Below, piece after piece: positions 44,363-64,000 of a stretch of 64,000 nt of DNA. Where the stretch lies: assembly GCA_023443745.1 (NCBI GenBank), contig JAEZTB010000059.1, positions 11,998 to 75,997 on the forward strand. Reading direction: 5' to 3'. The position numbers and the translations under genes are program-made. The stretch comes from Bacillota bacterium (lineage in GTDB: Bacteria > Bacillota > Clostridia > DSM-8532). The notes under the pieces were generated by a model. That model searched no databases and was not told where the DNA came from. It saw only the letters and a program-made list of their open reading frames with translations. The stretch's first letter is position 1, and each line of letters starts with the position of its first letter.

Positions 44363-44363
44363 A

Positions 44364-47925: not shown

Positions 47926-48561
47926 TTATAAGTGCCTTAAAGACCGAAAACTCCCCAACAGGTGAACCAAGTCATTCCCACTCCTGACACCCAGCTTTTT
48001 AAATATTTTTGTCTTTTGATTAGCTATGGTCTTATCTGAAGACAAAAGCCTGATATCCTTTCCGAGAATCATTTCCAGAACGGTTTTTTCTGCGACAGAC
48101 AGTTCGCTCAGGATGAGCGCTTTGATGAAATCCTCCTGGGGGGTACTCCCCCAGGCAGTTGCTCTTAAGGTTTCAGGGATCAGCTCGAATTGGCTTTTGA
48201 AGATATATCCTGAGGCGAAGGATTTCTTGCTGGCCTCAATGGATACCTGAGGATCTTCAATAGCCGTCAGCAGGATGACCTTTGCATGGGACGCCAGTCG
48301 TATTTCCTTGGCTGCTTCGATGCCTCCGAGTTCCTTTCCGGGCACCAGGTTCAAATCCATTAAAACGATATGCGGATTTACATGTCGCGACATCTCAATA
48401 GCATCATTTCTGTTATCGGTAGACCCCACAAGAATAAAATCCTGTTCCCGTTCCAGGAGAGCGTTGATCAGAAACCTAAAATCAGGGTCATCTTCGACTG
48501 ACATTACTCTTATCTTTTTTTGAATTGAGCTATTCATACTGCGCACCTGCAGCCCTTTCAT
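47926..48561 (-). CDS. NarL/LuxR-family response regulator
   Basis: REC (VEDDPD...IVLMDLNL...KVILLT) plus C-terminal LuxR HTH (LSVAEKTVLEMIL...TIANQKTKIFKKLGV). 4-bp overlap with the kinase gene. Confidence 0.85.
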   Translation of the reverse strand: MKGLQVRSMNSSIQKKIRVMSVEDDPDFRFLINALLEREQDFILVGSTDNRNDAIEMSRHVNPHIVLMDLNLVPGKELGGIEAAKEIRLASHAKVILLTAIEDPQVSIEASKKSFASGYIFKSQFELIPETLRATAWGSTPQEDFIKALILSELSVAEKTVLEMILGKDIRLLSSDKTIANQKTKIFKKLGVRSGNDLVHLLGSFRSLRHL

Positions 48562-49997
48562 TTACATTGGCAGGTCCGTTCCTCCTGTGACAAGGGAACA
48601 GATTCTGAATATGTAATACGCTTTAACGGAATATGAAGAAAAAACGTGGTCCCTTCATCCGAGCTGCTTTTTACGTCTATATAACCGTTATGTTTTTTTA
48701 TCACATTCATACAGTAAGAAAGCCCCAGACCAAAGTTACTATCTGTTTTCTTTGTTGTGAAATACGGCTCAAACAGGCGGTCCATTACTTCCTTCCTGAT
48801 CCCAGGTCCGCTGTCATGAACCGCAATACAGTAATAGGGTCTTTTCTTTTCTCGATAACATTTAATGTCGATGGCTCCTTCAGTCCTTACGGCATCGGAG
48901 GCATTTTGAATCAGATTATTCAGCACCTCAACGAGATGTGTCCTATCACAGTAAATATCAGGCTCATCCTTGCAATCCACCTCTATGGTGACGGACTTGC
49001 TTATGTTATTCCTGTTGAGCTGAACAGCCTGTGTGAGGATATCCTTCATAAACCATTGATGCTCGTTTAATAGAACTGTTCCTGAATAAAGGCATGCTTT
49101 TTGATTAAAATTTTGAAGATGCGCAACGGATCTCGTTATGATGTCTATCTCCTCAGGGACAGGAAGGCCCCCCTGTTGATATTTGCTCTGCAGATTTTCC
49201 AGGCACCATCCTATTTTAGCTGTTTCATTTTTAAGCAGATGCCCCGTGAATTGGGCATTTTTATTGATCAGAAGCATATCGGAATTCCAGCGGTAGTTTT
49301 CACTTCTGAGGCGCAGTCCCATGATACCTTCTCTGAAAGCCATCACAATGTAAAAAAGAATGGCTAAGAACAGTATATAGGTGTTTCCTTTCCACAGCTT
49401 GAACAGCTCCCTGATACCAAGGCTGTGAATGACAAAGGTCGTAATCAGACAAAACCATACAGCCGGTAAAAGAAGCATGGCCACAAGTCTTTTTTGTTTT
49501 CGTGCCTGAGCATTATTCTCCCGGAAAATAGAGGTCAGCATTAAATAGGTATAAAAAATACCAAACCCTACATTATAGACCGAGAATGCGATCCAGAATA
49601 CTCTGTCATTATGCTGATACCATGGCATTTTCAATGGGCTGTAAATAAGCACAAGCACAAGGGAAGGCAGAAATATGCCCAGCTTCAGCCATTTAAAATT
49701 TGCCGGATACCTTTTGTCAAAACCACAGAAGTAGAATATAAACAACAGACCTGTGGGCAAAGCCATGTGATAGACGATAGCAGTCATAGCGGAATAAATT
49801 TGTGTATACACTTCATAACTTATGCCCGATTCAAACTGCTTTTGAAGGAGCGGAACCAGATCATCATAATAATACTCTTTAAGGGTGCCAAGGCTGCAAA
49901 TAACCGCATTAATGGCGCACCATCTGTTTGCTTTATTTTTAGGACTCGACAGATAGATCAACATGGCCAGAACCCAAATAAAGATTGTGAAAATCAT
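48558..49997 (-). CDS. Multi-pass (about 6-7 TM) sensor histidine kinase
   Basis: H-box-like FTGHLLKNETAKI. HATPase motifs LNNLIQNASDAV, DSGPGI, GLGLSY. ATG at 49997; the ORF-track TTG is at 50012. Confidence 0.8.
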   Translation of the reverse strand: MIFTIFIWVLAMLIYLSSPKNKANRWCAINAVICSLGTLKEYYYDDLVPLLQKQFESGISYEVYTQIYSAMTAIVYHMALPTGLLFIFYFCGFDKRYPANFKWLKLGIFLPSLVLVLIYSPLKMPWYQHNDRVFWIAFSVYNVGFGIFYTYLMLTSIFRENNAQARKQKRLVAMLLLPAVWFCLITTFVIHSLGIRELFKLWKGNTYILFLAILFYIVMAFREGIMGLRLRSENYRWNSDMLLINKNAQFTGHLLKNETAKIGWCLENLQSKYQQGGLPVPEEIDIITRSVAHLQNFNQKACLYSGTVLLNEHQWFMKDILTQAVQLNRNNISKSVTIEVDCKDEPDIYCDRTHLVEVLNNLIQNASDAVRTEGAIDIKCYREKKRPYYCIAVHDSGPGIRKEVMDRLFEPYFTTKKTDSNFGLGLSYCMNVIKKHNGYIDVKSSSDEGTTFFLHIPLKRITYSESVPLSQEERTCQCK

Positions 49998-50087
49998 ATC
50001 CGATGACCTCAAAAAGGTATTTATTCTTCTATTTTGCAGTTTTTTCGTTTCTATGTAAATGATAAAAATAAATATTTGTCAAATATT

Positions 50088-51653
50088 TCACCAATTAATC
50101 CGAAACTGCATGGAACCAATGGAAATCACATCTGATTTTTCCAATCTGTATTCCTGACTGATGGGTACACCGTTCACATATGTTCCATTGGTAGAGTTCA
50201 AATCTGCTATATAAAGCTTATTGGAGGAAAATCTCAGAGAGCAGTGGGCGGCTGAAAGCTTTTTATCCTCCTGGAACGCCAATCCAGCCTTTTGAGTGCT
50301 TCTTCCGATGATGATTGAGCCATAGATATCCACCATATAAACCTGATTATTCACCATGTCCATTTTTGTGAGAACCACTGTCACATCCGGTTCCTGGGGT
50401 TCCGGTGCAACCTGCTCAGTACCAGGATTCGTAAGAGGTGCAGGCTCGGATACTGATTTATCCATAACTGCTGAAGTATTTGAGTCTTCTGCCTGCAAAG
50501 CTGCTTCCGGTTGTTCAGGCAGTGAGACAGCGGTTTGCTTTTTCCCTTTCCTGCGTCTGGCTATTAAAATTGCTGATACCACCACCAAAACCAGAATTCC
50601 TAATACTGCAGCGACAATAATAAGGGTGAGTTCTCCCGGATCATCCTCTGTACCGGATGCATTATCCGGACTATCTGTCGTTTCTTGAGTAGGGGAAGGT
50701 GGTGTTGCTTCTTTTTTTACGCCCAACCCGTTGGTCGGAATGGTATAGCTGTCACTTGCTTTTCCATGATCGGGTATAATGATGTCCAGCTTGAGAACTT
50801 GCTCATTTCCGTCCGAATGATAATTTGAAAGGTCTGCTTTTATAACATAACTGTTTTCTATTGATGTTTGTATTTTTAAAGCGAGGTCTAAAGCAATCGT
50901 TTGGTCCAGTCCATAAACAAGATCGAGCCCTCCCGGAGACCTGCGTGCAAGGCTTCCCAGGGTTTTTGAAGCCTCTACCTTTCTAGCTGACGGTTTATTC
51001 TCCATCATAGCCACAGTGAAGATGGGAATATGGCATTTATCAATTTTCCTGTATACTTCATCGAGGGTTATGCCCGTTGTGTAGTCGTCTTCACCGTCGG
51101 ATAATATCACAAGGCATTTTTTAGGGTAGGCCTTATCACTTGACAGCAAAACATCCAAGCCCTTGACTATACCGGTATATAGGTTGGTATCCTCTTTAGA
51201 TTTCCTGCTTATGGAATCAATCTGTGCCTCATACTCTTCCTTAGTTGAAACAAAAGGATTTGAGTAGGCCTCATTTCCTACTGAAAAAATACTGATATTA
51301 TCCTTATCGCTTGTTTTATGTACAATCTGTGTCAATATCTCCTTTACTTCACTGAGCTTTTTATCGCTCATGGAACCGGATACATCCACTAAAAAGAGAT
51401 ATGAAGCACCTTCCTGTGATTCAGCAAGACGATTCATTTCGCTGATAGCGATAGACGCATTGCCAAGAGAAAGCTTAAGCTCATCCTTGTTGACGTCTCT
51501 TTCCAGGTTTGTATTGAAAAAAACATTCAGGGTGCCATTATCTGCAATATAGCCTTCCAAATTGATAGTCAGCGCATCAATGGCACAGACCGGCAAAAGA
51601 ATGGTCATTGAACAAATCATCATCAAGAGGAATAAACCCTTTAAAGCTTTCAC
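50088..51653 (-). CDS. Signal peptide, extracytoplasmic vWA domain, TM segment and cytoplasmic FHA domain
   Basis: MIDAS LVDVSGSMSD...SDGEDD. TM LTLIIVAAVLGILVLVVVSAILIARRRKGKK. FHA IIIGRS...SAAHCSL...DLNSTNGTYVNG. Confidence 0.85.
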   Translation of the reverse strand: MKALKGLFLLMMICSMTILLPVCAIDALTINLEGYIADNGTLNVFFNTNLERDVNKDELKLSLGNASIAISEMNRLAESQEGASYLFLVDVSGSMSDKKLSEVKEILTQIVHKTSDKDNISIFSVGNEAYSNPFVSTKEEYEAQIDSISRKSKEDTNLYTGIVKGLDVLLSSDKAYPKKCLVILSDGEDDYTTGITLDEVYRKIDKCHIPIFTVAMMENKPSARKVEASKTLGSLARRSPGGLDLVYGLDQTIALDLALKIQTSIENSYVIKADLSNYHSDGNEQVLKLDIIIPDHGKASDSYTIPTNGLGVKKEATPPSPTQETTDSPDNASGTEDDPGELTLIIVAAVLGILVLVVVSAILIARRRKGKKQTAVSLPEQPEAALQAEDSNTSAVMDKSVSEPAPLTNPGTEQVAPEPQEPDVTVVLTKMDMVNNQVYMVDIYGSIIIGRSTQKAGLAFQEDKKLSAAHCSLRFSSNKLYIADLNSTNGTYVNGVPISQEYRLEKSDVISIGSMQFRINW

Positions 51654-51657
51654 ACTA

Positions 51658-52407
51658 TCACTCCTTTATGGTGATTTCATCGGATGGATTTATGACGAAT
51701 ACTGCAAGGGCAGTAAAATTATCGTTTTTTCCGTTCACTCGCTTACTAAGCCGCCCAACCATATATTTGAGCCATTCATCAGGTGTATGAGATTTTGCAA
51801 GATCGATTTCCATTTCATCCTCAAGTACATACTCCCAGAAACCATCGGTACATAATAAAAAGGTTTCAAACGCTCTTAGTCTTCCCTCTGCTTTCTGGAT
51901 ATCGGGTTTTATGGCCAAATCGTTTCCCAGAGCCCGCAGAACTTTGTTCCTGTCCTCATGGAATCTTATTTTTTCCGGAGGGATCTCACCGGAGAGCACA
52001 GCCATCTGTGAAACACTGTGATCCTTTGTCTGAAAGGTTCTTTTTCCCTCTGTAAAGCGGTAAAGCCTGGAATCCCCTATGTGACCGTAAATCATGGATT
52101 CCTGATTGCAAAATAGTGCTACTGCAGTACTTTTCATTTTCAATGAGGCGATTTGCCTGTTTAAGACTTGCTGGTTAGCCTTTTCAAATAATTGAAAGAT
52201 ATGATCGGGTTGGATATCCGGGTTACTCATAAATCCGTCGACAAGCGTGTCAACTGCAACCTTCGAGGCAATATCGCCGCCGCCATGTCCCCCCAGACCG
52301 TCTGCAACAACGCCTACCATCACTGGGCCGCTCATTTCAAAGCGGGCACAGTCCTCATTATAACTGCGGCCACCCATTTGACTGACTCTGGCAATTTTAT
52401 AAATCAT
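51658..52407 (-). CDS. PP2C-family Ser/Thr phosphatase (cytoplasmic)
   Basis: RSYNEDC, VVADGLGGHGGGDIAS, CTDGFWE, DNFTALAV. Confidence 0.9.
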   Translation of the reverse strand: MIYKIARVSQMGGRSYNEDCARFEMSGPVMVGVVADGLGGHGGGDIASKVAVDTLVDGFMSNPDIQPDHIFQLFEKANQQVLNRQIASLKMKSTAVALFCNQESMIYGHIGDSRLYRFTEGKRTFQTKDHSVSQMAVLSGEIPPEKIRFHEDRNKVLRALGNDLAIKPDIQKAEGRLRAFETFLLCTDGFWEYVLEDEMEIDLAKSHTPDEWLKYMVGRLSKRVNGKNDNFTALAVFVINPSDEITIKE

Positions 52408-52435
52408 GCTCTTTAACTCCTTTTTCGTATACGCC

Positions 52436-54313
52436 TTATGAAACCTTTATCACGAATGTGTTGTTTTCTCCTATTGTAAAGCAGTCTCCTTCATGCAAGG
52501 CCACACTTTGCTCAGATGTTAGCTTTCCCCTACCCGATACAAAAGTGCCGTTTGAAGATCCCAGATCCTTTATGCAAACAGCACGGGCCGCCTTATCCAG
52601 TAAAAGCTCGCAATGAACTCGGCTAACCCCTCGTGTATCATCGGAAAAGATGATGTGACAGTGATCAGGGCTTCGGCCAAGCACCACCTTTTTTTCTGAT
52701 AAGGGGAAAAAGACATTCTCATAATACCCGGAGAGTCCTACGATTCCCAAAGCAGAGGGATTGGGCGTATTATTGCGTACATTACTCTGCGGCTGGTCCA
52801 GGGCAGGGTTATTCCGGGAGAGTCCCTCCTGAGGTTTGTTCACGCTGTGGGCTGCTGCTGTTACGCAGGTTTTGGCAATCAAATCGTGCCCCGCATTTCT
52901 TTCTTTGTTCATAAAGCATACAACAGCATTTCCGATACCAATGATGCCACCCAATTCCATTGACACAAAAGCGCTGAACAGGGTATTGGAATATTTTGCT
53001 GCATTTCTGAGTAAGGCTTTTCCAAAAGTCAAAGGCTGGCTTGCATTATCAAAAACAACTAAGCCCATGATGCGCTTACCAAGAGTAGCCTGAAGTTTTG
53101 ATGACTCACAGCCGGTTCCATAAGCCACACTTAGTAAATAAAGTGCCAAGTAAAGGTCTCCCATAGTATCCGGCTCAAGCAGATTAATGAGTACGCCGTA
53201 GAATAATGCCGCGAGGATAAGCCCGTCAATGATGAGCGCAGCAAAACGTCGTCCAATATCAGCTTGTGCAGTGGTTGATGCGGCCGCCTGCATAGAAGCT
53301 ACAGGCCTTTCTTCTCTCGGTGACGTACTTGACAAAGCGGGTAAAGCTCCCGTCAAGGCCGCTTTAAAGGCACTCATAGACTGAAACCGGTCTTCGGATT
53401 TTACGGAAAGTGCTTTTACAATAGCCTTATCCATATGCTGAGGCAAATCACGGCAAAGGACCGATGGGGGGATGAGCTCATCCTTAAACATCCTCTGAGT
53501 GGCTTCCGGCGGTATGGTGCCAGTGATGCTGAAATAAAGCGTTCCAGCCAATGCATACACATCGGTAAACGGTCCCTGCTTACCATGGCTGCGGTATTGT
53601 TCCTCGGGAGCATATCCTCTTTTTAATATGATGGACAGACTCTGGCTCTTTCCCTTGAGTGCGACCCTTGCAGCACCGAAATCCAGGAGCTTGACTTTAC
53701 CGTTTTTGCAAACATAGATATTATCCGGGCTTATATCGCGGTGAATCACATTCTGACCATGTATTTGATCCAATGCGTCAAATATCGGAAGGAGCAGGCT
53801 GATGGTCTCCGACCAGGGAAGCTTTCCGCCCTTCTGCGAAATATACTTTTTTAAATCACAGCCATCCAGATATTCCATCACATAATAAGCTGTGCGATTT
53901 TCTTCGAACAGGGCCCTTACGGAAATGATATGGGGATTGTCCTGGTAAACATGGATCATACGCGCTTCTTCAAGAAACTTTTTCAATCCGTACTCATAAT
54001 CGTCTCGACTCGTATGAATGGTCATCTCCGTGGTACCGGGGATCCTTGTTGACAGACCGTCAGGCATGAATTCCTTAATGGCGACACGTTCATTGGCCTT
54101 TAGGTCATAGGCCATATAAGTTATTCCGAAGCCGCCATGGCCCAAAACCGCCCCGACCAGATACCTACCATGCAGAATGGTAGAAAGCGGCAGGGCAAAC
54201 ACAGGCTCCTGAGCAGAACCGGTTGTTGACCGGCAATTCGTACATTGGCCATCAATTACGCTTTCATGCATGCATTTCAGGCATAGCTTGTTAAAATCCA
54301 AAAGTTTCACCAC
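52436..54313 (-). CDS. Zn-ribbon, Hanks Ser/Thr kinase, RDD membrane module and FHA domain
   Basis: CLKC...CTNC; GHGGFGITY, VAIKEF, HRDISPDN, DFGAAR, YAPEEQ; RDD (RRFAALIIDGLILAALFYG...HDLIAKT); FHA VVLGRS...SRVHCEL...DLGSSNGTFVSG. Confidence 0.9.
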   Translation of the reverse strand: MVKLLDFNKLCLKCMHESVIDGQCTNCRSTTGSAQEPVFALPLSTILHGRYLVGAVLGHGGFGITYMAYDLKANERVAIKEFMPDGLSTRIPGTTEMTIHTSRDDYEYGLKKFLEEARMIHVYQDNPHIISVRALFEENRTAYYVMEYLDGCDLKKYISQKGGKLPWSETISLLLPIFDALDQIHGQNVIHRDISPDNIYVCKNGKVKLLDFGAARVALKGKSQSLSIILKRGYAPEEQYRSHGKQGPFTDVYALAGTLYFSITGTIPPEATQRMFKDELIPPSVLCRDLPQHMDKAIVKALSVKSEDRFQSMSAFKAALTGALPALSSTSPREERPVASMQAAASTTAQADIGRRFAALIIDGLILAALFYGVLINLLEPDTMGDLYLALYLLSVAYGTGCESSKLQATLGKRIMGLVVFDNASQPLTFGKALLRNAAKYSNTLFSAFVSMELGGIIGIGNAVVCFMNKERNAGHDLIAKTCVTAAAHSVNKPQEGLSRNNPALDQPQSNVRNNTPNPSALGIVGLSGYYENVFFPLSEKKVVLGRSPDHCHIIFSDDTRGVSRVHCELLLDKAARAVCIKDLGSSNGTFVSGRGKLTSEQSVALHEGDCFTIGENNTFVIKVS

Positions 54314-54319
54314 CGGAAA

Positions 54320-55600
54320 TTATTGATATTTGATCTCAAACAAAGCAGCCTGACGGCTCCCTAAATAAAACTGCTGGCCGCTTTCAAGCTTAACCGGCGT
54401 TCCCGGAGTCAGTCGATCGTTTGATCCTAAAAATGTTCCATAGGAAGAGCTCTCATCACATAGCCACAGAGCACCGCCTTCAATTTTGAGGCTGCAATGT
54501 TGTCTGCTTATGCCTTTGGTGGATTGAGGAAAAATGATATTGGCCAGCTTCGTATCACGGCCGAAAACAATTTTCCCGTTGTTTAGCGGGAAGGTCTTAC
54601 CCGCATATTCACCCGTCAAGCCAAAGAGCACAGGCTTGCCGTTCCGAGGGAAATCAGGCTGTGCCGCTACACCTTCTGAAATCAGCACAATCTGGCGAAT
54701 GCCTTTATTGATGAGGACTAACAATGTAAACCATGCGATAGCAATAAGAATGTAGCTCATTAAGCTTCCAAATACACCAAAGTCAATAAGGACGATGCCT
54801 GAATTCCAAACATAATGAAGAGCAATGGCTACTGCCAGATACTTTAAAAAGTCTAGGCTGATGAAATGTCTTCCCTCAAGCTTACCGCTGCCTTTTACCA
54901 TGGCAAGGGCCCCACCTGTAAGTGCTGCCCAAGCAACATGCATTCCCGGAGCCAAAATTCCCCTAAGGATAATGGTGTCAATTGAATTGTAGACAAATGC
55001 ATATCCTGCCGATTCTATGGCTGCAAAGCCTGCTCCAACCGCCCCCCCTATGAGGATACCATTCAATATGTATTTATTTTTGCTGCCCTTGTTAAGAAAT
55101 AAAGCCAGAGCTGCAACCTTCGCCGGTTCCTCTGAAAACGGGGCAAAGGTAGCCGGGCCGTTAGGCACAATAACCCCGAAAAGAACAGTAAAAAGTATGG
55201 ACATGACGCCGCCCAGAAGAAACATTTTGATGACATCATAAAAGGGAATATTTCTGGGGATGTTCAATTCCCAAAAGAAAATAAGCACTGCCAGAGGTGT
55301 GGCAAAGGAGCCTACTATGATGAACATGGGTACTATTTTGTCTCCGATAAACAGCAATGCGATATAAAACAACAGAGTAAGCAGAAGTCCTACTGCCAGA
55401 ACCCTGAAAAACAGCCAGGGTTTTTTCCACTCGGATAGCATCTCGCTTTCTTTTGGAGTACTGAGCTCCGTTCCCGCTATAAAAAATCGCTCGCCATCCT
55501 GCTTGCTGTGGGGCTTGAATACGTCTGAGAACACATCGTTCAGCTTTAAGCCTGAATTCAGGCTCTTTTTAAAAAATACCGTATTACCACTGGATTTCAT
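54320..55600 (-). CDS. PrsW-like intramembrane protease module with C-terminal FHA domain
   Basis: Polytopic membrane body with the FSEEPAKV (EExxK) and LHYVWN motifs. FHA IVFGRD...SRQHCSL...SSSYGTFLGS. Confidence 0.8.
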   Translation of the reverse strand: MKSSGNTVFFKKSLNSGLKLNDVFSDVFKPHSKQDGERFFIAGTELSTPKESEMLSEWKKPWLFFRVLAVGLLLTLLFYIALLFIGDKIVPMFIIVGSFATPLAVLIFFWELNIPRNIPFYDVIKMFLLGGVMSILFTVLFGVIVPNGPATFAPFSEEPAKVAALALFLNKGSKNKYILNGILIGGAVGAGFAAIESAGYAFVYNSIDTIILRGILAPGMHVAWAALTGGALAMVKGSGKLEGRHFISLDFLKYLAVAIALHYVWNSGIVLIDFGVFGSLMSYILIAIAWFTLLVLINKGIRQIVLISEGVAAQPDFPRNGKPVLFGLTGEYAGKTFPLNNGKIVFGRDTKLANIIFPQSTKGISRQHCSLKIEGGALWLCDESSSYGTFLGSNDRLTPGTPVKLESGQQFYLGSRQAALFEIKYQ

Positions 55601-55626
55601 AGAAACCTCCGTTATGGGACCTGTTA

Positions 55627-56907
55627 CTATAGTACCTTAAACATATTTTTCATATTGGCCAGATAAAAGCTTTCACCGCTGTGAAGCGTATAGGGTTGAT
55701 GCGGTACCAGCCGGGTTCCGTTCTGAAGAAATGTGCCATAGCTGGACTGTTTATCCGTCAATATCAACGCTCTATCTTCAGCTTTAAGCTCACAATGGAG
55801 GGAGCTTATTCCCGGGGTATCCTTTGGAAAAACAATCTGGCATTTGGACGGATCTCTTCCCATGGCGACACTTTCCCGGACCTTAAAAGTATTATTCTGA
55901 AAAAAACCTGCCGTACAGAGTATTTGAGGTTCTGAAATGACCCTGGAATTTGTGGGTGTTATTACAGCTTGGCTGCCACCGGCTGAAGACTTCTTCCTTG
56001 ACTTAAGGTAAAAACCCACCAGCGAGGCAATTCCGGTTATTCCGGCTATCACAAAAATGTTTATATCATCATTGGCCTCAGTTTGCGTACCCGGCCCAGG
56101 GTTGCTGGGTTCTGGATTACCAGAAGGCTCATCCGGCGACTGGGCGCCTGAAGAATCCCCGGCTTTTTCATAGGGAAAATCATTTTCATCAAGAAAAGCG
56201 GTGACATAATCGATGTAAATCGAATAATTGACACCAGCCTTTTCTTCACCCTCTAAAACCGCGCCAAATGTGTTGATTCCCAAAACTGCACCATCCTGCC
56301 GGACAAGAGGGCCTCCCGAATTACCATGATGGATGGTGGCGTCTATCTGATAGCATTCATTACCGTCTATTTTAGTATTGAGCTTGCTGATTACACCTTT
56401 GGTAACCGTAACATCACTGATTTCGGAAGGATAGGCATAGCCATCGTCAGTTATGCTGTCGGCCGCTCCAGGAAAGCCTAATGCATAAATCTCTTCTGCT
56501 ATGCTGACCTGGCCGGATGGGCACAAAGTCAATGGGATCCGATCGGATACGGGGGTCTCCGTAACCAGTATGGCTAGATCGGGAGATGACCAGGACTGGA
56601 CCACCTTGGCTTTTACCAGGGTTCCGTCTATCTGACCATTCTCCAGAACAATAAAATGATCCAGGACAAGGTAGACATTTTCTTCGAACCCATCAACCAC
56701 ATGATTGTTAGTAATGAAAACAGATGGAGCCTCTCCCTTTTTCCCTACTGCAAAGCCTGATCCGCTGGAGATGTATTGCGAGGTGAATCCCACAACACGC
56801 ACCACACCGTTAACCGTAGTTTCTATGGCTGAATCGGCAATACTTATGGTTCTCCCAAAGAAGAACAGGCAGCCTATCAATAAAATGCACAGTAATCTGT
56901 TTTTCAT
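55627..56907 (-). CDS. Signal peptide, trypsin-like (S1, Trypsin_2) serine protease, TM segment and cytoplasmic FHA domain
   Basis: ATG at 56907 lies 7 nt after GGGAGG and gives MKNRLLCILLIGCLFFFG. Triad contexts TNNHVV, SPDLAIL, GNSGGPL. TM IFVIAGITGIASLVGFYLKSRKK. FHA VAMGRD...SSLHCEL...SSYGTFLQN. Confidence 0.85.
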   Translation of the reverse strand: MKNRLLCILLIGCLFFFGRTISIADSAIETTVNGVVRVVGFTSQYISSGSGFAVGKKGEAPSVFITNNHVVDGFEENVYLVLDHFIVLENGQIDGTLVKAKVVQSWSSPDLAILVTETPVSDRIPLTLCPSGQVSIAEEIYALGFPGAADSITDDGYAYPSEISDVTVTKGVISKLNTKIDGNECYQIDATIHHGNSGGPLVRQDGAVLGINTFGAVLEGEEKAGVNYSIYIDYVTAFLDENDFPYEKAGDSSGAQSPDEPSGNPEPSNPGPGTQTEANDDINIFVIAGITGIASLVGFYLKSRKKSSAGGSQAVITPTNSRVISEPQILCTAGFFQNNTFKVRESVAMGRDPSKCQIVFPKDTPGISSLHCELKAEDRALILTDKQSSYGTFLQNGTRLVPHQPYTLHSGESFYLANMKNMFKVL

Positions 56908-56959
56908 GAAGTTACCTCCCGGAGCTGGCTTTGTAACTGGGGGGACATTTAGATTCTCG

Positions 56960-58012
56960 TTATAGGAGCTCAATGATAATTACCGTAAAATTATCCTGAC
57001 CGTTCCTGTTTTTCTGCAGAATAAGCTTTTCCAGCTCTCCGGTGGCCCTATGGGGATCAAGCTTCATGGTGGATAGAATCTCCTCATCGGATAATGTTCC
57101 AAAAACACCATCGGACATCAACAGAATGCGGTCACCCGGAACAAGCTGCAGCGGACGAACACTACGATCAATTTCTTCAATATCACCCATGCCGATGTAA
57201 CTGGTCAGAGCATTTCTTTGAGGGTCATTCCGGGCTTTTTCAAAGGAGATTTCTCCCATGGCTGCCTTTTGGTCTAATTCAGAAGCATAGGTATGCTCCT
57301 TGTTGATTTGAAGCAACGCGCCGTTTCTCACAAGACAAATGCGGCTGTCCCCAACAGAAATCCATTGGAGCATCATGTCCTTTACATTGACTGCTACTAC
57401 CGTGGAACCACTTTTATCCTTGCAGTTTCTTAAATAGGAATTGACTTCCCTATTGGTAAAGGAAAGCATGCTTAAAAGCTCCTGGGATGCGTCAGAACCA
57501 AAGGGTTTCGTGCTGAACTGTCCCAGCATGGTGCGGGTTACCAGAGCGCTCACTTCCGCGCCATTGGCCAAACCACCCATACCATCCGCTACAATGGCAA
57601 GCAGGCCTTTTTCCTGGCAAAGGGCTTTGTTGGATAAATCAGAAATTCCGAAGGAGTCCTGCTGACTCTCCCGCTTTCCGATATTCTGTACATTGCCGAT
57701 ATGTAAGATGCCCTTCGGTTCGGAATTCATGGGGTCAACTCCCGGTCCTTGAATTTTTGTTTTTCTTTTTTTACGCCTGAGTAACAGGTAAAAGCCCAAT
57801 GCCGCCAATAAGATCAATAAAAGCAGGATTATCCCTGTCAACAACGGATATTTTGTCAGCGTTTCCAATATAGGATTTTCTCCTGAAATCGCAGACGGGC
57901 TGATGTTGGACGGATCAGCGGTTACAGCGGGTTGAATGGGCTCAATTGTTACAGCGGGCTCAGTGGCGATTGCCGGCCCACTGGTTCCTACGAAATTATT
58001 CACTCCAATCAA
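56960..58012 (-). CDS. Membrane-anchored PP2C-family Ser/Thr phosphatase
   Basis: TM LLTGIILLLLILLAALGFYLLLRRKKRK, then RESQQDS, IVADGMGGLANGAEVS, MSDGVFG, DNFTVIII. Start uncertain: TTG at 58012 or GTG at 58003. Overlaps the upstream FHA gene. Confidence 0.8.
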   Translation of the reverse strand: MIGVNNFVGTSGPAIATEPAVTIEPIQPAVTADPSNISPSAISGENPILETLTKYPLLTGIILLLLILLAALGFYLLLRRKKRKTKIQGPGVDPMNSEPKGILHIGNVQNIGKRESQQDSFGISDLSNKALCQEKGLLAIVADGMGGLANGAEVSALVTRTMLGQFSTKPFGSDASQELLSMLSFTNREVNSYLRNCKDKSGSTVVAVNVKDMMLQWISVGDSRICLVRNGALLQINKEHTYASELDQKAAMGEISFEKARNDPQRNALTSYIGMGDIEEIDRSVRPLQLVPGDRILLMSDGVFGTLSDEEILSTMKLDPHRATGELEKLILQKNRNGQDNFTVIIIELL

Positions 58013-58592
58013 ACCTCTCTCCGCAAAGCGGTACGAATATGAGCTTTGTTTCCCCTAATTCAATGACATCGTAAGGTGCTATTTCTGTAGTGTTGAACAG
58101 CGCCTTGCCATTGAAGCGTACAATGCTTCTTCCATCGCCTGGCCTGAAATAGAATATTTTATCCTTGGCATCGAAGCTTATAAAAGCATGATTTTCCCGT
58201 GAAATGGTATTATCGCCATGGATGCATATGTCCATGGTTTCACTCCGGCCTATGGCATTATTGTCCGAATGAATGCGGTAATCCCTGCCCTTGTCGGTTC
58301 CTGCTACACAAACTAGCCACCCCACCACAGGGTCAATACCAGTTTTATGCTTGATGAGAGCTACTGTGCGTTCCCTATCTGCTGAAGCCCCTTTATTGGG
58401 TGTTGCCATGGAATAGGTGTGTCCGGATGAGCCCGAGTCCACAGACTCAGCTCCGCGGGAAACCGGCATGGTTGGGCCGACCTCCAGGGGGCGTGTCATG
58501 TTCACATTGGCTGATGAACTGTTGCAATTAGGGCATTCCGAGAATTTGGACGCATCATAAAAATGACCGTTGCTGCATTGTTTCATTTCCAT
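57996..58592 (-). CDS. Zn-ribbon plus FHA-domain protein (soluble)
   Basis: RBS AAGGAGG 8 nt upstream. CSNGHF...CPNC. FHA VGWLVCVAG...AIGRS...SRENHAFISF. Confidence 0.85.
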   Translation of the reverse strand: MEMKQCSNGHFYDASKFSECPNCNSSSANVNMTRPLEVGPTMPVSRGAESVDSGSSGHTYSMATPNKGASADRERTVALIKHKTGIDPVVGWLVCVAGTDKGRDYRIHSDNNAIGRSETMDICIHGDNTISRENHAFISFDAKDKIFYFRPGDGRSIVRFNGKALFNTTEIAPYDVIELGETKLIFVPLCGERFDWSE

Positions 58593-58612
58593 AAGAATAT
58601 CCTCCTTGAGAT

Positions 58613-59149
58613 TCAGGTGGTTTTATAGATAGATGAATGGTTAAAACCATTATTCTTTTTGTTGCTTTGCCTGTAAAAAAGCATGGTGATGACTGTGATA
58701 AACAGGGCACCTCGTGCAAGAGTCCAACATGTGGAAAAAGAATGTAAGGTGGAGGAATCCCATTGACCAATCCCTAATTTGTTATAGGCCCAAAGCTGAA
58801 TCGGCCTGTTAAGAATACCGTGGACAGCACTCAGCAAGGATACTATTTTAATGCTTAATGGAGTAGTTTTTAAGCTTATCAATGCTAAAGCGAATCCAAT
58901 CCAATCAATATACCATAAAAACTCAGTAATATTGCTTAAGGGTGAATTGAAATAGTTCATTCTTTGTTGCTCAGATAAAAGGATCATATCAATTGTGATC
59001 TTCATAAACGACCCTATCAAAGAAAGAAGCATAAAATATTTGGCAGCATTCCATTTCTTGATATGTAAGAAAAATGCAAAAAAGAAGACTAGCATTCCCA
59101 CTGATGTTCCAATATTAAGTAAAAATGCTAATATATAATTCGTTTCCAT
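58613..59149 (-). CDS. Hypothetical polytopic (about 5 TM) membrane protein
   Basis: 178-aa ORF with hydrophobic helices and no recognisable motif. Packed between the FHA and kinase genes. Confidence 0.6.
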   Translation of the reverse strand: METNYILAFLLNIGTSVGMLVFFFAFFLHIKKWNAAKYFMLLSLIGSFMKITIDMILLSEQQRMNYFNSPLSNITEFLWYIDWIGFALALISLKTTPLSIKIVSLLSAVHGILNRPIQLWAYNKLGIGQWDSSTLHSFSTCWTLARGALFITVITMLFYRQSNKKNNGFNHSSIYKTT

Positions 59150-59180
59150 ATCATTTACTTATCCTTTCCGTAGCTCTTTA

Positions 59181-60374
59181 TTATACATTAAAAGTGTTTA
59201 ACCAGATTAAGAGCTCAACGGCTGCAGATGCAATAGCCAAAATAAAAAAGAATTTTGGAATAGTGGGTATTGATTCATCCGCTCCCCTTGAAAGTCCTTC
59301 AGAGACCATTTCTGTCTTTACTACATCATTTTTTTCAGGTCCAGCCTTCACTGGTTCAGAATCTTTATCAGCCGTATCCTTTAGAAAATCGGAAGCTATC
59401 AGTGCTTCGTAGAGCTCGCTCATGCTCTGGTAACGATTCTTCTGCAAAACAGCGAGCCCTTTGAGAAGAGCCGCTTCCTTTTCCGCATTGATGCTCACTC
59501 CCAATTTTGTAGGAGGTTCAAGGGTATCCTCATGGACTCTTTCCATGGATTCAGGAGGAGTCTGGCCTGTGATGGCCTTATAGATGGTGGCACACAGAGC
59601 ATACACATCGGTCCACGGTCCCTGGCTCCCGCGTGTGCGGTATTGCTCCTCCGGGGCATATCCTGGCTTCAAAAGTACCGATAGACTCTTCCCTCCGTCA
59701 GTGGATATATCTCGGGCAGCTCCGAAATCCAGCAGCTTGATATCACCATTGCGTGTAATCATGATATTGTCCGGGCTGATATCCCGATGGATGATTCCTC
59801 TCTCATGCATCTCGGACAGGGATTTAATTAACGGCTTCACCCACTCCAGCACCTGATAAACCGGCAACCTTCCGCCCTCTTTTTGCAGATACTGCTTTAA
59901 GGTGATACCCTCGATATATTCCATAACAATATAGCCCGTTCCGTTTTCCTTAAAGAAATCCTTGACCGATACAACACCGGGAAGGGCATAGAATTTGGCA
60001 AGGCTCTTGGCTTCACCGACAAATTTATCCAGGCCGTTGAGATAGGCCTCCCTCCTGTCACCCGAAAAAGGGGTGACGGTTGTTGTGGTCGTGTTTTCAC
60101 GGGTGACAAAACCAGCGGGATAGTATTCTTTGATAGCTACCTTCATGTCCAGGTTCAAGTCCCAGCCCAGATAGGTGATGCCAAATCCGCCCTCTCCCAA
60201 AACACATCCGATCAAATACTTGCCATTGAGAATAGTCTCGGGCGGAAGCTGGTGAGGAGACAGCTTTTCTTCATCAGCATGCTGCCATCCGCAATGCGGG
60301 CAGGGATGTTCCTTGCTGTTGATTTCAGACATACAGCCCATACAGAGCCGATCGACCTCAGTTTGACCTTTCAT
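59181..60374 (-). CDS. Zn-ribbon plus Hanks Ser/Thr kinase with a single C-terminal TM anchor
   Basis: ATG at 60374 lies 6 nt after AGGGGGA and gives MKGQTEVDRLCMGCM, co-linear with the paralogue. GEGGFGITY, VAIKEY, HRDISPDN, DFGAAR. C-terminal FFFILAIASAAVELLIWL. Confidence 0.85.
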   Translation of the reverse strand: MKGQTEVDRLCMGCMSEINSKEHPCPHCGWQHADEEKLSPHQLPPETILNGKYLIGCVLGEGGFGITYLGWDLNLDMKVAIKEYYPAGFVTRENTTTTTVTPFSGDRREAYLNGLDKFVGEAKSLAKFYALPGVVSVKDFFKENGTGYIVMEYIEGITLKQYLQKEGGRLPVYQVLEWVKPLIKSLSEMHERGIIHRDISPDNIMITRNGDIKLLDFGAARDISTDGGKSLSVLLKPGYAPEEQYRTRGSQGPWTDVYALCATIYKAITGQTPPESMERVHEDTLEPPTKLGVSINAEKEAALLKGLAVLQKNRYQSMSELYEALIASDFLKDTADKDSEPVKAGPEKNDVVKTEMVSEGLSRGADESIPTIPKFFFILAIASAAVELLIWLNTFNV

Positions 60375-60485
60375 CCGTGATCCCCCTGGATAATGATTAA
60401 TTTTCAGTTTCATTATAAATTACATCGTTCTATTTGTGTTCCTATAGATTATAGGAATGCATAAAGAAGCATCTTCTATCAGTTA

Positions 60486-62624
60486 TTACTTATACTGCTG
60501 GCGCTCACTGCCATCAAATCTGATTCTGTAGAAATTGTAATCGTCGTCCCAATTATAGTAATAGATCCAGTTATCTACGATATAAATACCATGAGCATTA
60601 TCACTGCACAGTTTTATTTCTCTTGTGCCATCTTTTTGGATTCCATAGAGACTGTTTCCATCATCTTCATCCGTAAAAAACAGCGAATCTCCTGAAATAT
60701 TAAGATCCTCTATGTGACGGCTGGAAATCAGGCTTGCCTCCGATCCGTCAAGGCGGGCTCTTTTAAAGTTGTGATCGCCACTGGTTGAATAATAGATCCA
60801 CGAACCATCAATAATGAAAACAGAAGCGGAAATACCTTCAATCTGTGTGTGTTCAGTGCCATCCAGGCGGACCTTGAATAATTTCGCAGATTCAGTGTTG
60901 TAATAAATCCAGTCATCCATTACAAAATACACCTTGGGCAAATCTTCCCGGATTGGGGGATTCGTCAGTCTCAGCTTGCTTGTACCATCCATTTCCATAC
61001 TGTACAAGCCCCATGTCTCGGGACCGAAGTTATTCACATAGTAAATTTTATTGTTCTTGACTAATAAATTGGCAGGGTGAGTACTGTCGGGAACTTCCAC
61101 ATATGTCCCTGTGTTCAAATCCGCATTGTAAATTGAATAATGGCCATTTATAAAGTAGATCTTGTCTCCAACAACATTGAGATCATCAACGTACGGACTT
61201 TCATATAAAAGATCACGAGGCGTATCATCAGTGTCTTTTGCATATATCATTCCCTGGTCGGCATAATACACGGTACCGTCCTGGAAGGTAACACGCCCTC
61301 CGTAAATAATGTTTCCTTCCGTATTTCCGGCAGTATTGGGAGTGACTATTTTTCTAGGTTTATCCGGTGTTCCCTGAGGGGTCGCTTCAGGAGTATTGTG
61401 CTTTGCTTCTTTCGTGACTGTCGGGCTTACTTGCACGTCTGAGGGCAAATCTTCATTCTTATTTATAAACCGGGTACCCACCAATATTCCGAGAGCCAGT
61501 AAAAGGACTGCTGCAATAATCGAGCCTTTTGCTTTTTTAAGCTTTGGCTGTATTTCTTTCTCTTCTTCCTTCGGTGTGGGTATTATGGAGTCAGTATTGG
61601 TTTCCGCAATATCATCAGCTTCCGGAATGTCCTTTAAAAACTCTGAGGCAATCAGGGCATCATAGAGCTCGTTCATGTTCTGGTAGCGATTCTTCTGCAA
61701 TACAGCCAGGCCTTTAAGAAGTGCCGCTTCCTTTACTTCATTAATGCTCACTCCTAGCTTTGTAGGAGGCTCAAGTGTATCATCATGGACTCTTTCCATG
61801 GATTCGGGAGGAGTCTGACCTGTGATGCCCTTGTAGATAGTGGCACATAGAGCATAGACATCGGTCCAGGGTCCTTGGCTTCCTCGGGTGCGGTATTGCT
61901 CCTCCGGTGCATAGCCAGGCTTTAAAAGTACAGAAAGGCTCTTTCCACCTTCGGTGGACATATCCCGGGCAGCGCCGAAATCCAGCAGCTTGATTTCACC
62001 ATCCGGAGTGATCATGATATTGTCCGGGCTGATATCCCGATGGATAATCCCCTTCTCGTGCATCTGGGTCAGGGATTTTATAAGAGGCTTCACCCATTCC
62101 AGTACCTGAAAGACCGGCAGCTTGCCACCCTCTTTTTTGAGGTATTGCTTGAGGGTGATCCCTTCCACATATTCCATAACAATATAACCGGTGCCGTTTT
62201 CCTTGAAAAAATCCTTCACCGAAACAACACCGGGCAGACTGTAAAACTTTGCAAGACTCTTGGCTTCATCCACAAATTTGTCAAGGCCTTTAATAAAAGC
62301 TTCACGTTTATCCCCCGAAAAAGGGGTAACAGTTGTGGTAACAGTATTCTCACGGGTGACGAAGCCTGAAGGATAGTATTCTTTTATGGCAACCTTCATG
62401 TCCAGATTCAGATCCCAGCCAAGATAGGTGATGCCAAAGCCACCCTCACCCAACACACATCCAACCAGATACTTACCGTTTAGAATGGTTTGGAGGGGCA
62501 GCTGATGAGGTGACCGCTCGGCGGTATCAGCCTGCCATCCACAATGTGGGCAGGGGACTTCCTTGTTCTCAATCCTTGTCATGCAGCCCAGACAGAGCTG
62601 GTTGATGTCAATAAAATTACTCAT
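60486..62624 (-). CDS. Zn-ribbon, Hanks Ser/Thr kinase, TM segment and extracytoplasmic DUF5050-type beta-propeller
   Basis: Kinase core almost identical to 59181-60374. TM IIAAVLLLALGILVG. C-terminal repeats of the form (W/K)IYY...DG(T/S). Confidence 0.85.
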   Translation of the reverse strand: MSNFIDINQLCLGCMTRIENKEVPCPHCGWQADTAERSPHQLPLQTILNGKYLVGCVLGEGGFGITYLGWDLNLDMKVAIKEYYPSGFVTRENTVTTTVTPFSGDKREAFIKGLDKFVDEAKSLAKFYSLPGVVSVKDFFKENGTGYIVMEYVEGITLKQYLKKEGGKLPVFQVLEWVKPLIKSLTQMHEKGIIHRDISPDNIMITPDGEIKLLDFGAARDMSTEGGKSLSVLLKPGYAPEEQYRTRGSQGPWTDVYALCATIYKGITGQTPPESMERVHDDTLEPPTKLGVSINEVKEAALLKGLAVLQKNRYQNMNELYDALIASEFLKDIPEADDIAETNTDSIIPTPKEEEKEIQPKLKKAKGSIIAAVLLLALGILVGTRFINKNEDLPSDVQVSPTVTKEAKHNTPEATPQGTPDKPRKIVTPNTAGNTEGNIIYGGRVTFQDGTVYYADQGMIYAKDTDDTPRDLLYESPYVDDLNVVGDKIYFINGHYSIYNADLNTGTYVEVPDSTHPANLLVKNNKIYYVNNFGPETWGLYSMEMDGTSKLRLTNPPIREDLPKVYFVMDDWIYYNTESAKLFKVRLDGTEHTQIEGISASVFIIDGSWIYYSTSGDHNFKRARLDGSEASLISSRHIEDLNISGDSLFFTDEDDGNSLYGIQKDGTREIKLCSDNAHGIYIVDNWIYYYNWDDDYNFYRIRFDGSERQQYK

Positions 62625-62663
62625 TTATGTACTCCCCCTCAGAAAAAGTCTAATTGTATGAAG

Positions 62664-64000
62664 CTAATCCTCAATCCTGTACCACCCCGGCCCCATGGGC
62701 TCATAAAAGAAATACATAAATCTTCCGTCAGATGTTGGATGAAAAACAAATGTCTCGTGAGCTGTTGAGTATGAATAGGGAAGGACTTCATTGCCGCTGC
62801 CGTCCAGACGAGATTTATAGAACATGCCTGAATCGGTGACGTAATAAATCCAGCCACCCGAAACCTGAATACCTTTGCTTTCAGGTATAATTTGCTCCTT
62901 ATCTGAACCATCGGGCCGACTGCGGGTTAAGCCCTCCTCATAAGAATAGATATAGCCACCAAAAGCAAATGCCGTGGATTTATTGCTTGAAATTTTTTCA
63001 AGGTTCTGCCCATTTGTTCGGACTCTATAGGGAGCCCAGTCTGGATTTATTCCGACAAAATAGATCCATCCGTCATAAACGCAAGTCATTGCGCACCAGG
63101 ACCAATCCTTGCCCAGGTCCAGCACAGTTGCCTGGCCGGAGCCATCCAGTCTCATTTTACTTATTTTGCAATTCTTATAATCATTGAAATAAAGCCATCC
63201 CTGATCTATAGCCATAAACCCAATGGCTCCCCCCTGATAAAGGGTCTTTTCACCCGATCCATCAAGATTGGCAATACAGATGGAACCTCCGGACGTATCT
63301 TCCCTGCTAAAGAAGATTACATCTTTTCCTGTTTCAGGATGCTTGCAGATGAGGAACATATCCACTGGCCCTTTTATGACTTCTGACAAATCCACTCTCA
63401 CATTACTGGGCCCACCCGTAAGCTGATAATAGACCTCATTGGGCAAAGACTCCTCCAGGTCAGCCGAAAATTTCATCAGGCTGCCTCTGTTGATATAATA
63501 AAACCAGTCCTTCCACACCCTGCTATTGGTGCTGTGAAAATCCGAAGATATATAATTATCCGGATATGCACTGGGTCTTTGCTCGGACGGTGGAGTCCCG
63601 GAGGGCTGTACAGAAGAGGGATCATTCCCGCCTTGAGATGAAGATGAAGTGGCCGACAGTTTGCACCAGCCTGCTTGTTCATTTTCAACAAAATAGATTA
63701 TATTTTGATCATCGAAAGGAAAGAGTCGGAAGTAAAAATCGCCCGGATACGAAAAAGGTATGTTTACATTATCGCTTCCGTCCATTGAAATTCTGTGCAC
63801 TTCGCCGCCAGCCGCAGTATAATTACTATAAGTACCGTCATATGTATATACGCTGTATTTGCTCTCCAGGCCGGATGCGACCTGTTTTTTGTCTGAACCA
63901 TCGGCACGCATTCTGTAGAGATTTTTATCACTGCTCGTGTAATATAGATAACCGTTATAAACCCAAATGGGGTTTTCCTGAGAGCTTTGATACTCGGACA
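62664..64000 (-). CDS. DUF5050-type beta-propeller repeat protein (3' part; N-terminus lies beyond the right edge)
   Basis: Frame stays open from 63912 to 64000 (...VYNGYLYYTSSDKNLYRMRADGSDKKQ), so the ORF-track Met at 63911 is internal. Repeated GW(I/L)Y(Y/F)...R(L/P)DGS blades and a Ser/Pro-rich linker. Confidence 0.8.
   Translation of the reverse strand, partial: SEYQSSQENPIWVYNGYLYYTSSDKNLYRMRADGSDKKQVASGLESKYSVYTYDGTYSNYTAAGGEVHRISMDGSDNVNIPFSYPGDFYFRLFPFDDQNIIYFVENEQAGWCKLSATSSSSQGGNDPSSVQPSGTPPSEQRPSAYPDNYISSDFHSTNSRVWKDWFYYINRGSLMKFSADLEESLPNEVYYQLTGGPSNVRVDLSEVIKGPVDMFLICKHPETGKDVIFFSREDTSGGSICIANLDGSGEKTLYQGGAIGFMAIDQGWLYFNDYKNCKISKMRLDGSGQATVLDLGKDWSWCAMTCVYDGWIYFVGINPDWAPYRVRTNGQNLEKISSNKSTAFAFGGYIYSYEEGLTRSRPDGSDKEQIIPESKGIQVSGGWIYYVTDSGMFYKSRLDGSGNEVLPYSYSTAHETFVFHPTSDGRFMYFFYEPMGPGWYRIED

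Follow-up and report, generated by a model that had tools for sequence, protein, structure and literature searches.

Genes and domains of the cluster

A cluster of genes for Ser/Thr phospho-signalling and membrane proteins was analyzed in 64,000 nucleotides of DNA from a gut Bacillota bacterium (class Clostridia; GenBank assembly GCA_023443745.1, contig JAEZTB010000059.1, positions 11,998 to 75,997), the whole of which is called the window here and gives the position numbers. From position 47926 to the right edge, every open reading frame (ORF) was listed on the minus strand, with intergenic gaps of 75 bp or less and otherwise overlaps; a single long transcript across the cluster is plausible. 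A promoter/terminator scan of the cluster performed no better than shuffled sequence. Domain E-values for window ORFs were taken from a Pfam profile search, and transmembrane (TM) segments and catalytic motifs were read from the sequence by motif checks and a hydropathy scan. The domains listed by an initial annotation, which had been made from the letters alone (three kinases, two PP2Cs, vWA, trypsin, PrsW, RDD and DUF5050), were all recovered by Pfam on the minus strand at the positions first given for them (Table 1). The thirteen ORFs that it had joined into one unit are real, but the thirteenth is cut by the window edge, and the part that is conserved between genomes is smaller, as described below.

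Table 1. Genes of the minus-strand cluster, from position 47926 to the right edge of the window
Feature	Position	Strand	Evidence
Response regulator, NarL/LuxR-type	47926..48561	-	Response_reg 4.2e-14; GerE 16.8 bits vs cutoff 23.5
Polytopic histidine kinase, ~5-6 TM, without large ectodomain	48558..50012	-	HATPase_c 2.2e-22; hydropathy
vWA-FHA protein	50088..51653	-	VWA 2.5e-14; FHA 4e-16
Soluble PP2C phosphatase, 249 aa	51658..52407	-	PP2C_2 2.4e-11
Zn-ribbon Hanks kinase with RDD membrane module and C-terminal canonical FHA (kinase-RDD-FHA)	52436..54313	-	Pkinase 3.4e-30; RDD 6.3e-19; FHA 6.1e-15
PrsW-family glutamic intramembrane protease with C-terminal canonical FHA (PrsW-FHA)	54320..55600	-	PrsW-protease 2.1e-19; FHA 5.3e-11
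Trypsin/HtrA/MarP-like serine protease with TM and canonical FHA (trypsin-FHA)	55627..56973	-	Trypsin_2 6.3e-24; FHA 1.6e-12
Membrane-anchored PP2C phosphatase	56960..58012	-	PP2C_2 2.4e-10
Small Zn-ribbon/divergent-FHA adaptor	57996..58592	-	Yop-YscD_cpl 5.6e-7; FHA 5.7e-4
178-aa polytopic membrane protein, no family match	58613..59149	-	No Pfam, NCBIfam or PADLOC match
Zn-ribbon Hanks kinase, C-terminal TM anchor	59181..60413	-	Pkinase 2e-30
Receptor kinase, Zn-ribbon, Hanks kinase and DUF5050 propeller	60486..62624	-	Pkinase 4.8e-30; DUF5050 6.1e-37
DUF5050 beta-propeller protein, 5'-incomplete, at least 445 aa	62664..64000 (edge)	-	DUF5050 4.8e-22

The G-loop, VAIK, HRD, DFG and APE motifs were intact in all three cluster kinases, and each opens with an N-terminal CxxC...CxxC Zn-ribbon, as do the aligned cluster kinases of related genomes. 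Hydropathy gave the receptor kinase (60486..62624) one TM segment (aa 362-389), the position of which would place its DUF5050 propeller outside the cell. The kinase at 59181..60413 is a paralogue of this receptor kinase with a TM segment in its tail and without an ectodomain; it probably starts at Met14, about base 60374, and its orthologue in a 90% relative (GCA_023398035.1) is 397 aa long. A Thr-rich insert (ENTTTTTVTPFSG / ENTVTTTVTPFSG) was observed right after the VAIK strand in both of these DUF5050-type kinase paralogues, and is a candidate multi-site phospho-docking loop. The DUF5050 ORF at the edge has a frame that is open to base 63998 with no upstream stop, so the window edge truncates the cluster at its 5' end. 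The product of this ORF is probably extracytoplasmic and is possibly the C-terminal portion of a further receptor kinase. A search of 5.8 billion proteins returned two weak matches for it, no close homologue and no self match, while the same search did return self matches for the vWA-FHA and adaptor proteins; either this is a blind spot of the search or the gene is highly variable and strain-specific.

Both phosphatases retain the metal-binding motifs DGxGG, (S/T)DG and DNxT. The membrane-anchored PP2C has, by hydropathy, a short outside N-terminus, a TM segment (aa 48-81) and a cytoplasmic PP2C domain. Against the Stp1/IreP model of NCBIfam the membrane-anchored enzyme reached 1.2e-36 and the soluble one 1.5e-43, both under the family cutoff; the soluble PP2C also matched the PADLOC candidate PDC-M21C (6.4e-17). 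Hanks kinases with competent motifs, PP2Cs and FHA domains with phosphothreonine-binding residues are encoded together, with Pfam scores above cutoffs, and the combination has, on these motifs, the features expected of general Hanks/PP2C/FHA signalling.

Five FHA domains with a canonical core had been proposed. The GR...SxxH...NGT/YGT core was found in four of them (vWA-FHA, trypsin-FHA, PrsW-FHA and kinase-RDD-FHA), but the fifth, in the small adaptor, is divergent. The vWA-FHA protein consists of a signal peptide, a beta-sandwich, a vWA domain with a metal-ion-dependent adhesion site (MIDAS), one TM segment, a disordered linker and the FHA domain. Its MIDAS is intact, as first read, and the residues D90xS92xS94, T156 and D186 were invariant across 29 homologues. 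An AlphaFold2 model (mean predicted local distance difference test score, pLDDT, 79) showed a disordered stalk and linker, and together with the positions of the signal peptide and TM segment it predicts that the vWA domain lies outside and the FHA tail in the cytoplasm. ITIH1 and ArnB of the ArnAB complex were among the top Foldseek matches of the vWA ectodomain (13-15% identity, a likeness at the level of fold), and the best PDB sequence match of the FHA domain was ArnA (5a8i, 5.4e-10). The vWA-FHA family comprised 289 clusters (50% identity) at E<=1e-30 among 1.84 billion representatives, of which the best-scoring clusters listed were mostly ~500 aa.

The trypsin-FHA protein has an intact His/Asp/Ser triad and is predicted by hydropathy to have an outside protease domain, a TM segment (aa 303-324), a disordered linker and a cytoplasmic FHA domain. 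Its true start is probably Met23, and its orthologue is 426 aa long. It scored under cutoff on the MarP and DegP models of NCBIfam (MarP-family 3e-16). In PrsW-FHA the EExxK, FxxxE and HxxxN motifs are intact, and the protein is 79% identical to its counterpart in a 54% relative; PrsW-FHA fusions have already been judged likely 'signaling peptidases' (PMC3482391). For the family of the RDD module in kinase-RDD-FHA, binding on the cytoplasmic side of the membrane has been suggested in lipid-carrier contexts (PMC12419801).

The adaptor is soluble and cytoplasmic and is built from a CHCC Zn-ribbon, a variable disordered linker and the divergent FHA domain, and its gene overlaps the downstream membrane PP2C gene by 17 nt. 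This FHA domain retains IGR and S-R-E-N-H and is without the S-x-N-G loop; its Pfam score for FHA is right at the cutoff, and Yop-YscD_cpl gives a better score. In the family alignment, the divergent domain is highly conserved, and the linker carries a T41-[MV]-P-[VL] motif conserved at 90% or more and an invariant T76; the T41 motif has a hydrophobic +3 residue of the kind that FHA domains prefer. The family comprised 1873 homologue clusters at 90% identity. Listed homologues with a source name came from Clostridia (Clostridium sp., Oscillospiraceae, Desulfitobacteriaceae, Gallacutalibacter), their public annotation was only 'hypothetical protein' or 'FHA domain-containing protein', and no homologue was found in a phage genome collection. 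As a sequence search against PDB gave no match, a fold comparison was needed: with an AlphaFold2 model of moderate confidence (mean pLDDT 63.5), the best Foldseek matches were the FHA domains of GarA and OdhI. Both of these are small phospho-switch proteins, and each binds its own N-terminus once that is phosphorylated.

Conserved core, relatives and selection

Neighborhoods of vWA-FHA and adaptor homologues in other genomes were compared with the window by tblastn (loci L081, L082, L084, L086, L089, L091, L093 and L097); here and below, statements of absence in relatives rest on the called-gene tables of their loci. A seven-gene order (Zn-ribbon/divergent-FHA adaptor, membrane PP2C, trypsin-FHA, PrsW-FHA, kinase-RDD-FHA, PP2C, vWA-FHA) was identical in the window, L081 (the 90% relative), L082 (the 54% relative) and L097 (Candidatus Gallacutalibacter stercoravium, 36-62% identity per protein), which bears out the expectation that the genes would be co-localized in related genomes; kinase-RDD-FHA orthologues were present in all three relatives. 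Reduced forms were found in L084, without the RDD kinase, and in L089, without the trypsin protein and the second PP2C. A kinase-FHA was present in L086 and L091, with a trypsin-FHA homologue (152 bits) retained in L086, and in L093 a stand-alone FHA protein occupied the expected position of vWA-FHA.

Receptor kinases accompanied the core in every locus, with ectodomains that differ (DUF5050, RCC1/WD40, LRR_5+SLH, DUF285/LRR, Sel1). Between the receptor kinase of the window and its L082 orthologue, the kinase domain was 83% identical and the propeller 29%. The outer domains of the receptor kinases are exchanged between genomes. The real unit is accordingly not the 13 genes first proposed: it is a seven-gene core with one or more receptor kinases and lineage-specific accessories.

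Ratios of nonsynonymous to synonymous substitutions (dN/dS) against L081 were 0.01-0.34 in the 11 of 11 comparable genes, indicating purifying selection. The lowest (0.01) belonged to the adaptor, the most conserved protein of the system, the kinase at 59181..60413 gave 0.15, and the highest (0.34, on few substitutions) belonged to the 178-aa protein. Since the order is kept across unrelated contigs and the genes are under purifying selection, chance juxtaposition is excluded. The flanks of the cluster were different in each genome, some with integrase, transposase, resolvase or methylase genes, which argues for an accessory system.

The histidine kinase/response regulator pair and the 178-aa protein lie outside the core. 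Of the histidine kinase/LuxR pair initially annotated, the HATPase_c and Response_reg domains were confirmed, but the LuxR-type GerE domain stayed below its cutoff, and full-length NarL-family matches of the response regulator were likewise under the NCBIfam cutoffs. The response regulator start overlaps the histidine kinase stop by 4 nt. The pair is present in L081, where the histidine kinase is 95% identical, and orthologues adjoin the L093 cluster in divergent orientation (46% identity for the full-length histidine kinase, 56% for the response regulator); it was absent from the other six loci (L082, L084, L086, L089, L091 and L097). Being found in some loci only, it is a recurrent accessory. 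The 178-aa protein, which has a counterpart in L081 only, is a lineage-specific accessory gene. It had been called a 5-TM protein; hydropathy gave two strong hydrophobic segments, and reading of the sequence suggests up to ~5.

Genome contigs were also scanned with the FHA motif [NGD]STNGT[YF]VN. The hits were mostly unrelated FHA loci, many of them actinobacterial fhaA/pstP/pknB, and only L001, L012, L037 and L038 were informative. Among distant clusters, that of Sphingobium fluviale (L037, 5191-18512) is similar and has in addition an FHA-FHA-ABC transporter and a Ppx/GppA-like protein. On plasmid AZO_p4 of Azospirillum lipoferum 4B (L099, 7405-17337), FHA, divergent FHA, PP2C, PP2C, a trypsin-like peptidase, a kinase with a membrane domain and a further kinase are flanked by an integrase and an ISL3 transposase. 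With such analogous clusters in alphaproteobacteria, the theme crosses phyla. On the Leisingera caerulea plasmid NZ_CP081079.1 (L098, 7638-15607), a kinase, an adaptor-like divergent FHA protein and a PP2C lie directly upstream of two dynamin-family genes, and the adaptor-PP2C dyad there shares the 17-nt overlap of the window dyad. In L086 (17557-21569), Dynamin_N and DUF87 genes were also seen downstream of the cluster. These dynamin neighbors hint that the module is tied to membrane-remodelling proteins.

The remainder of the window consists of carbohydrate-use genes (sugar and host-glycan utilization). A 1142-aa protein at 25707-29135 with Laminin_G_3, a sialidase-like carbohydrate-binding module, BNR repeats and a Peptidase_S9 domain adjoins ABC sugar-transport genes and a DHDPS/NanA-like gene. 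A 1228-aa homologue of it lies near the cluster in the 90% relative, so that the ~15 kb of sugar genes at 33067-47889 intervene only in this genome. The stretch at 18046-22244 has a lowered GC content (0.38-0.39) and encodes a sensor with dCache and His_kinase domains, a response regulator of AraC type and a 282-aa ORF without Pfam match; the region looks like a typical sugar-sensing two-component set and was possibly acquired separately. A 286-aa ORF without Pfam match lies at 3479-4339 on the plus strand, between a GH28/F5-F8-type-C protein and a LacI regulator.

Proposed signalling complex and rival explanations

The cluster is best explained, at slightly better than an even chance, as a modular envelope signalling complex scaffolded by phosphothreonine and FHA domains, in which kinases, PP2Cs and FHA-tailed effectors at the membrane gate extracytoplasmic and intramembrane proteolysis. 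This reading is drawn from the conserved core order, the swapped ectodomains, the purifying selection, the adaptor motif and GarA/OdhI-like fold, and the links to ArnA/ArnB. That kinases and phosphatases probably control the FHA-tagged membrane proteins, as the initial annotation suggested, would agree with the topology predicted here, with FHA tails inside and the vWA and trypsin domains outside. The propeller or repeat ectodomain of a receptor kinase would sense a cue at the surface or outside the cell; the kinase would then autophosphorylate and phosphorylate Thr sites, for which the Thr-rich loop after the VAIK strand and the T41 motif of the adaptor are candidates. The phosphothreonines would next serve as docking sites for the FHA tails of vWA-FHA, trypsin-FHA, PrsW-FHA and kinase-RDD-FHA, and docking would cluster or activate the vWA protein and the two proteases as an envelope complex. 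The output would be regulated proteolysis or remodelling, both outside the membrane and in it; possibly a second output would reach transcription by way of the ArnA-like adaptor and, in genomes that have it, the histidine kinase/response regulator pair. The two PP2Cs would reset the switch. As to purpose, cell-surface surveillance (of contact, damage or an invader) is favored over core growth control, with an immune-like function and homeostasis of the wall as the chief alternatives.

Several observations weigh against a signalling complex of this kind. The divergent FHA domain of the adaptor is without the Asn loop of the canonical domains and perhaps does not recognize phosphothreonine. Hydropathy of the RDD module gave an odd number of membrane crossings, by which the FHA domain of kinase-RDD-FHA would sit outside. 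The dN/dS of the vWA ectodomain was 0.19 against the close relative, that is, with no positive selection, and strong diversifying selection on this domain is thereby ruled out. The neighbors in the window are sugar-use genes and not a defence island, and the matches in PADLOC-DB v2 were limited to generic models for kinases (PD-T4-6, mad6), models of trypsin domains and PDC-M21C. The 5' end of the cluster lies beyond the window, where a partner gene may be present in this genome; the L084 cluster is bounded on both sides and is without an extra partner.

Three other explanations were weighed. A dedicated immune system against invaders (phage, epibiont or competitor), in which variable surface receptors detect and the proteases and vWA protein are effectors or trigger a protective or abortive response, is unlikely and overlaps the signalling complex, differing mainly in purpose. 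It is in keeping with receptor ectodomains that are swapped between genomes and diverge fast, with the varying flanks and their mobile and methylase genes, with the PDC-M21C match of the soluble PP2C and with the dynamin neighbors in L098 and L086. It also has parallels in the vWA conflict systems and in the Esr threat-sensing pathway of oral Actinomycetales, which has a beta-propeller sensor, a vWA protein, a kinase, a phosphatase and an FHA output protein (PMC13622651). However, MoxR and classical toxic effector domains went undetected, PADLOC gave no match for the adaptor or for the vWA-FHA and PrsW-FHA proteins, and the metabolic neighbors, the phage collection and the vWA ectodomain, as given above, argue against it.

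Housekeeping control of envelope or cell-wall homeostasis, as by PknB/PrkC-Stp or FhaA-FhaB-PstP, was judged improbable. Variable content and changing flanks are unlike an essential conserved locus, and the exchanged receptor ectodomains also speak against it. Under this explanation the cluster would tune peptidoglycan or surface polysaccharide, with the trypsin-like protease acting MarP-like on wall hydrolases and RDD sensing lipid-linked precursors. Both PP2Cs are Stp1/IreP-like, the kinases score best on PknB/Stk1-type models, the FHA domains resemble FhaA and FhaB, the protease has MarP-family similarity, the L084 locus sits among surface-polysaccharide genes including VanZ, and the binding proposed for RDD in lipid-carrier contexts (PMC12419801) would suit such a role; yet all NCBIfam matches are far under cutoff, and no PASTA, RodA/FtsW or PBP was found in the window or the relatives. 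Least probable, and by our estimate very much so, is a module that regulates a secretion or pilus machine whose genes lie elsewhere or past the window edge, after the manner of PpkA-PppA-Fha1 in the type VI secretion system (T6SS) or TscD/E/F in T7SSc, a type VII secretion system (T7SS) variant. For it speak the vWA, kinase, PPM phosphatase and FHA components that accompany several T7SS variants (PMC11217815), the vWA ectodomain of PpkA in the T6SS threonine-phosphorylation pathway (PMC3224232) and the 5' end beyond the window; against it, neither the window nor the loci of relatives, L084 and L097 among them, yielded EssC/TsxC, WXG100, Tss or Tad genes.

Beyond the envelope signalling complex, a wider reading is held tentatively and with more doubt than belief. 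The cluster would belong to a cross-phylum receptor-kinase signalosome, in which kinases with interchangeable ectodomains (propeller, LRR, Sel1) detect surface threats or contacts and directly switch on extracytoplasmic and intramembrane proteases and a vWA binder through phosphothreonine-FHA docking. The role would be immune-like or contact-sensing, with a logic analogous to that of KAPP and plant receptor kinases. At its center would stand the adaptor-PP2C dyad common to the alphaproteobacterial islands and the dynamin-linked modules.

Hanks kinases, PP2Cs and FHA domains are common in gut Clostridia, and few have known inputs or outputs. The cluster offers a defined and conserved wiring diagram, with swappable receptor kinases, four reader-bearing membrane proteins and a highly constrained adaptor. 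If the proposed complex is real, it would show phosphothreonine docking controlling proteolysis across the membrane in bacteria, and would give a tractable entry (adaptor T41, FHA Arg mutants, protease substrates) to surface sensing in abundant gut commensals; the related alphaproteobacterial clusters suggest a general principle.

Comparison with known systems

As the initial annotation held, searches of Pfam, NCBIfam, PADLOC and the literature open to searching gave no named system that the cluster matches. No specific family was found in NCBIfam or PADLOC, all NCBIfam matches were far under cutoffs, vWA-FHA, PrsW-FHA, the adaptor and the 178-aa protein had no match in PADLOC-DB v2, and full-text literature searches found no paper that describes the cluster. 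The actinobacterial division cluster, an in-cis T6SS/T7SS regulator and a vWA-MoxR system are excluded, as their defining genes are absent.

The actinobacterial operon fhaA-fhaB-pstP-rodA-pbpA-pknA-pknB also combines a pair of FHA proteins with a membrane-anchored PP2C and two Hanks kinases, and the FHA domains of the cluster resemble its FhaA and FhaB. In contrast, the present cluster has vWA, trypsin, PrsW and RDD domains, swappable ectodomains and variable gene content, and no FtsW/RodA, PBP/transpeptidase or PASTA was found in the window (Pfam) or in relatives, in line with what had been read from the window before. Scores fell well below membership on the NCBIfam models (PknB_PASTA_kin 156 bits vs cutoff 450; FhaB 47 vs 125).

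Like the PpkA-PppA-Fha1/TagH switch of T6SS, in which a membrane complex is turned on and off post-translationally by a membrane-bound Hanks kinase, a PP2C and an FHA protein, the cluster has an extracytoplasmic vWA domain; in the T6SS threonine-phosphorylation pathway of Pseudomonas aeruginosa this domain is the ectodomain of PpkA and takes part in sensing (PMC3224232). Here, in Gram-positive Clostridia, the vWA domain is fused to an FHA tail and not to a kinase, the FHA proteins number five, with two PP2Cs and a pair of FHA-tethered proteases beside them, and Tss genes are lacking; the TagH model reached 27-28 bits vs a cutoff of 120 (NCBIfam). The earlier statement that the window holds no T6SS or T7SS structural genes was upheld by Pfam, which detected no Tss, EssC/TsxC, WXG100 or Tad genes there, and none were called in relatives. 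TscD/E/F are the components that accompany T7SSc (PMC11217815); the FtsK-like ATPase (TsxC/EssC) and WXG100 by which T7SSc-j are recognized were missing from the window and from the relatives' called genes.

The comparative-genomic proposals named by the initial annotation, that neighborhoods of vWA, FHA and PP2C (with or without a kinase) act in conflict or defence, did not carry over. The work in question (Kaur et al., 2020; PMC7159879) concerns vWA-MoxR-VMAP conflict systems, in which FHA and PP2C are only sporadic. No MoxR-type or other AAA+ ATPase was found among the Pfam matches of the scanned window ORFs and none adjoined cluster genes in the loci of relatives; the ternary conflict systems couple a MoxR AAA+ ATPase and a VMAP component to their vWA protein (PMC7159879, PMC13622651). 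Esr, these systems and the cluster share a beta-propeller sensor at the surface, a vWA protein, a Ser/Thr kinase paired with a phosphatase, and an output protein with FHA; sensor and output are diversified. It differs from them in that no MoxR, VMAP or transglutaminase was found, the propeller is fused straight to the kinase, and the outputs are FHA-tethered proteases and not Esx secretion or toxins.

In Deinococcus radiodurans, DRA0331-DRA0334 encode vWA, a transmembrane Ser/Thr kinase, FHA and PP2C in one operon (bioRxiv 10.64898/2026.01.23.701218). Unlike the present cluster, that operon has four genes, has FHA fused to PP2C, is linked to DNA-damage kinases, and is without the proteases, RDD or diversity of receptor ectodomains seen here. 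The two proteases can themselves be set beside PrsW (the sigma-W site-1 protease) and MarP/HtrA, which are envelope-stress signal-transducing proteases. They belong to the same families and have intact catalytic motifs; in contrast to these, each carries a cytoplasmic FHA domain, there is no adjacent anti-sigma/sigma pair, and equivalog scores are far under cutoff.

The Arn system, with its kinases ArnC/ArnD, shares with the cluster the pairing of a Zn-ribbon/FHA protein with a vWA protein. In the repression of Sulfolobus motility, ArnA is a Zn-finger and FHA protein and ArnB has a vWA domain, and the two interact under the control of phosphorylation (PMC6509490, PMC12852372). The FHA domain of ArnA binds the C-terminal region of ArnB when this is phosphorylated. 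Both were among the best PDB matches of the vWA-FHA protein, and the architecture of the adaptor mirrors ArnA. The Arn system is archaeal, is without proteases and shares no operon with its kinases; ArnB is cytoplasmic with FHA on a separate protein, whereas here the vWA domain lies outside and FHA is fused. The signal peptide, TM segment and own FHA domain of the vWA protein thus speak against a cytoplasmic ArnB or archaeal orthology. Undescribed in searchable sources, the cluster is a new form of known phosphothreonine signalling.

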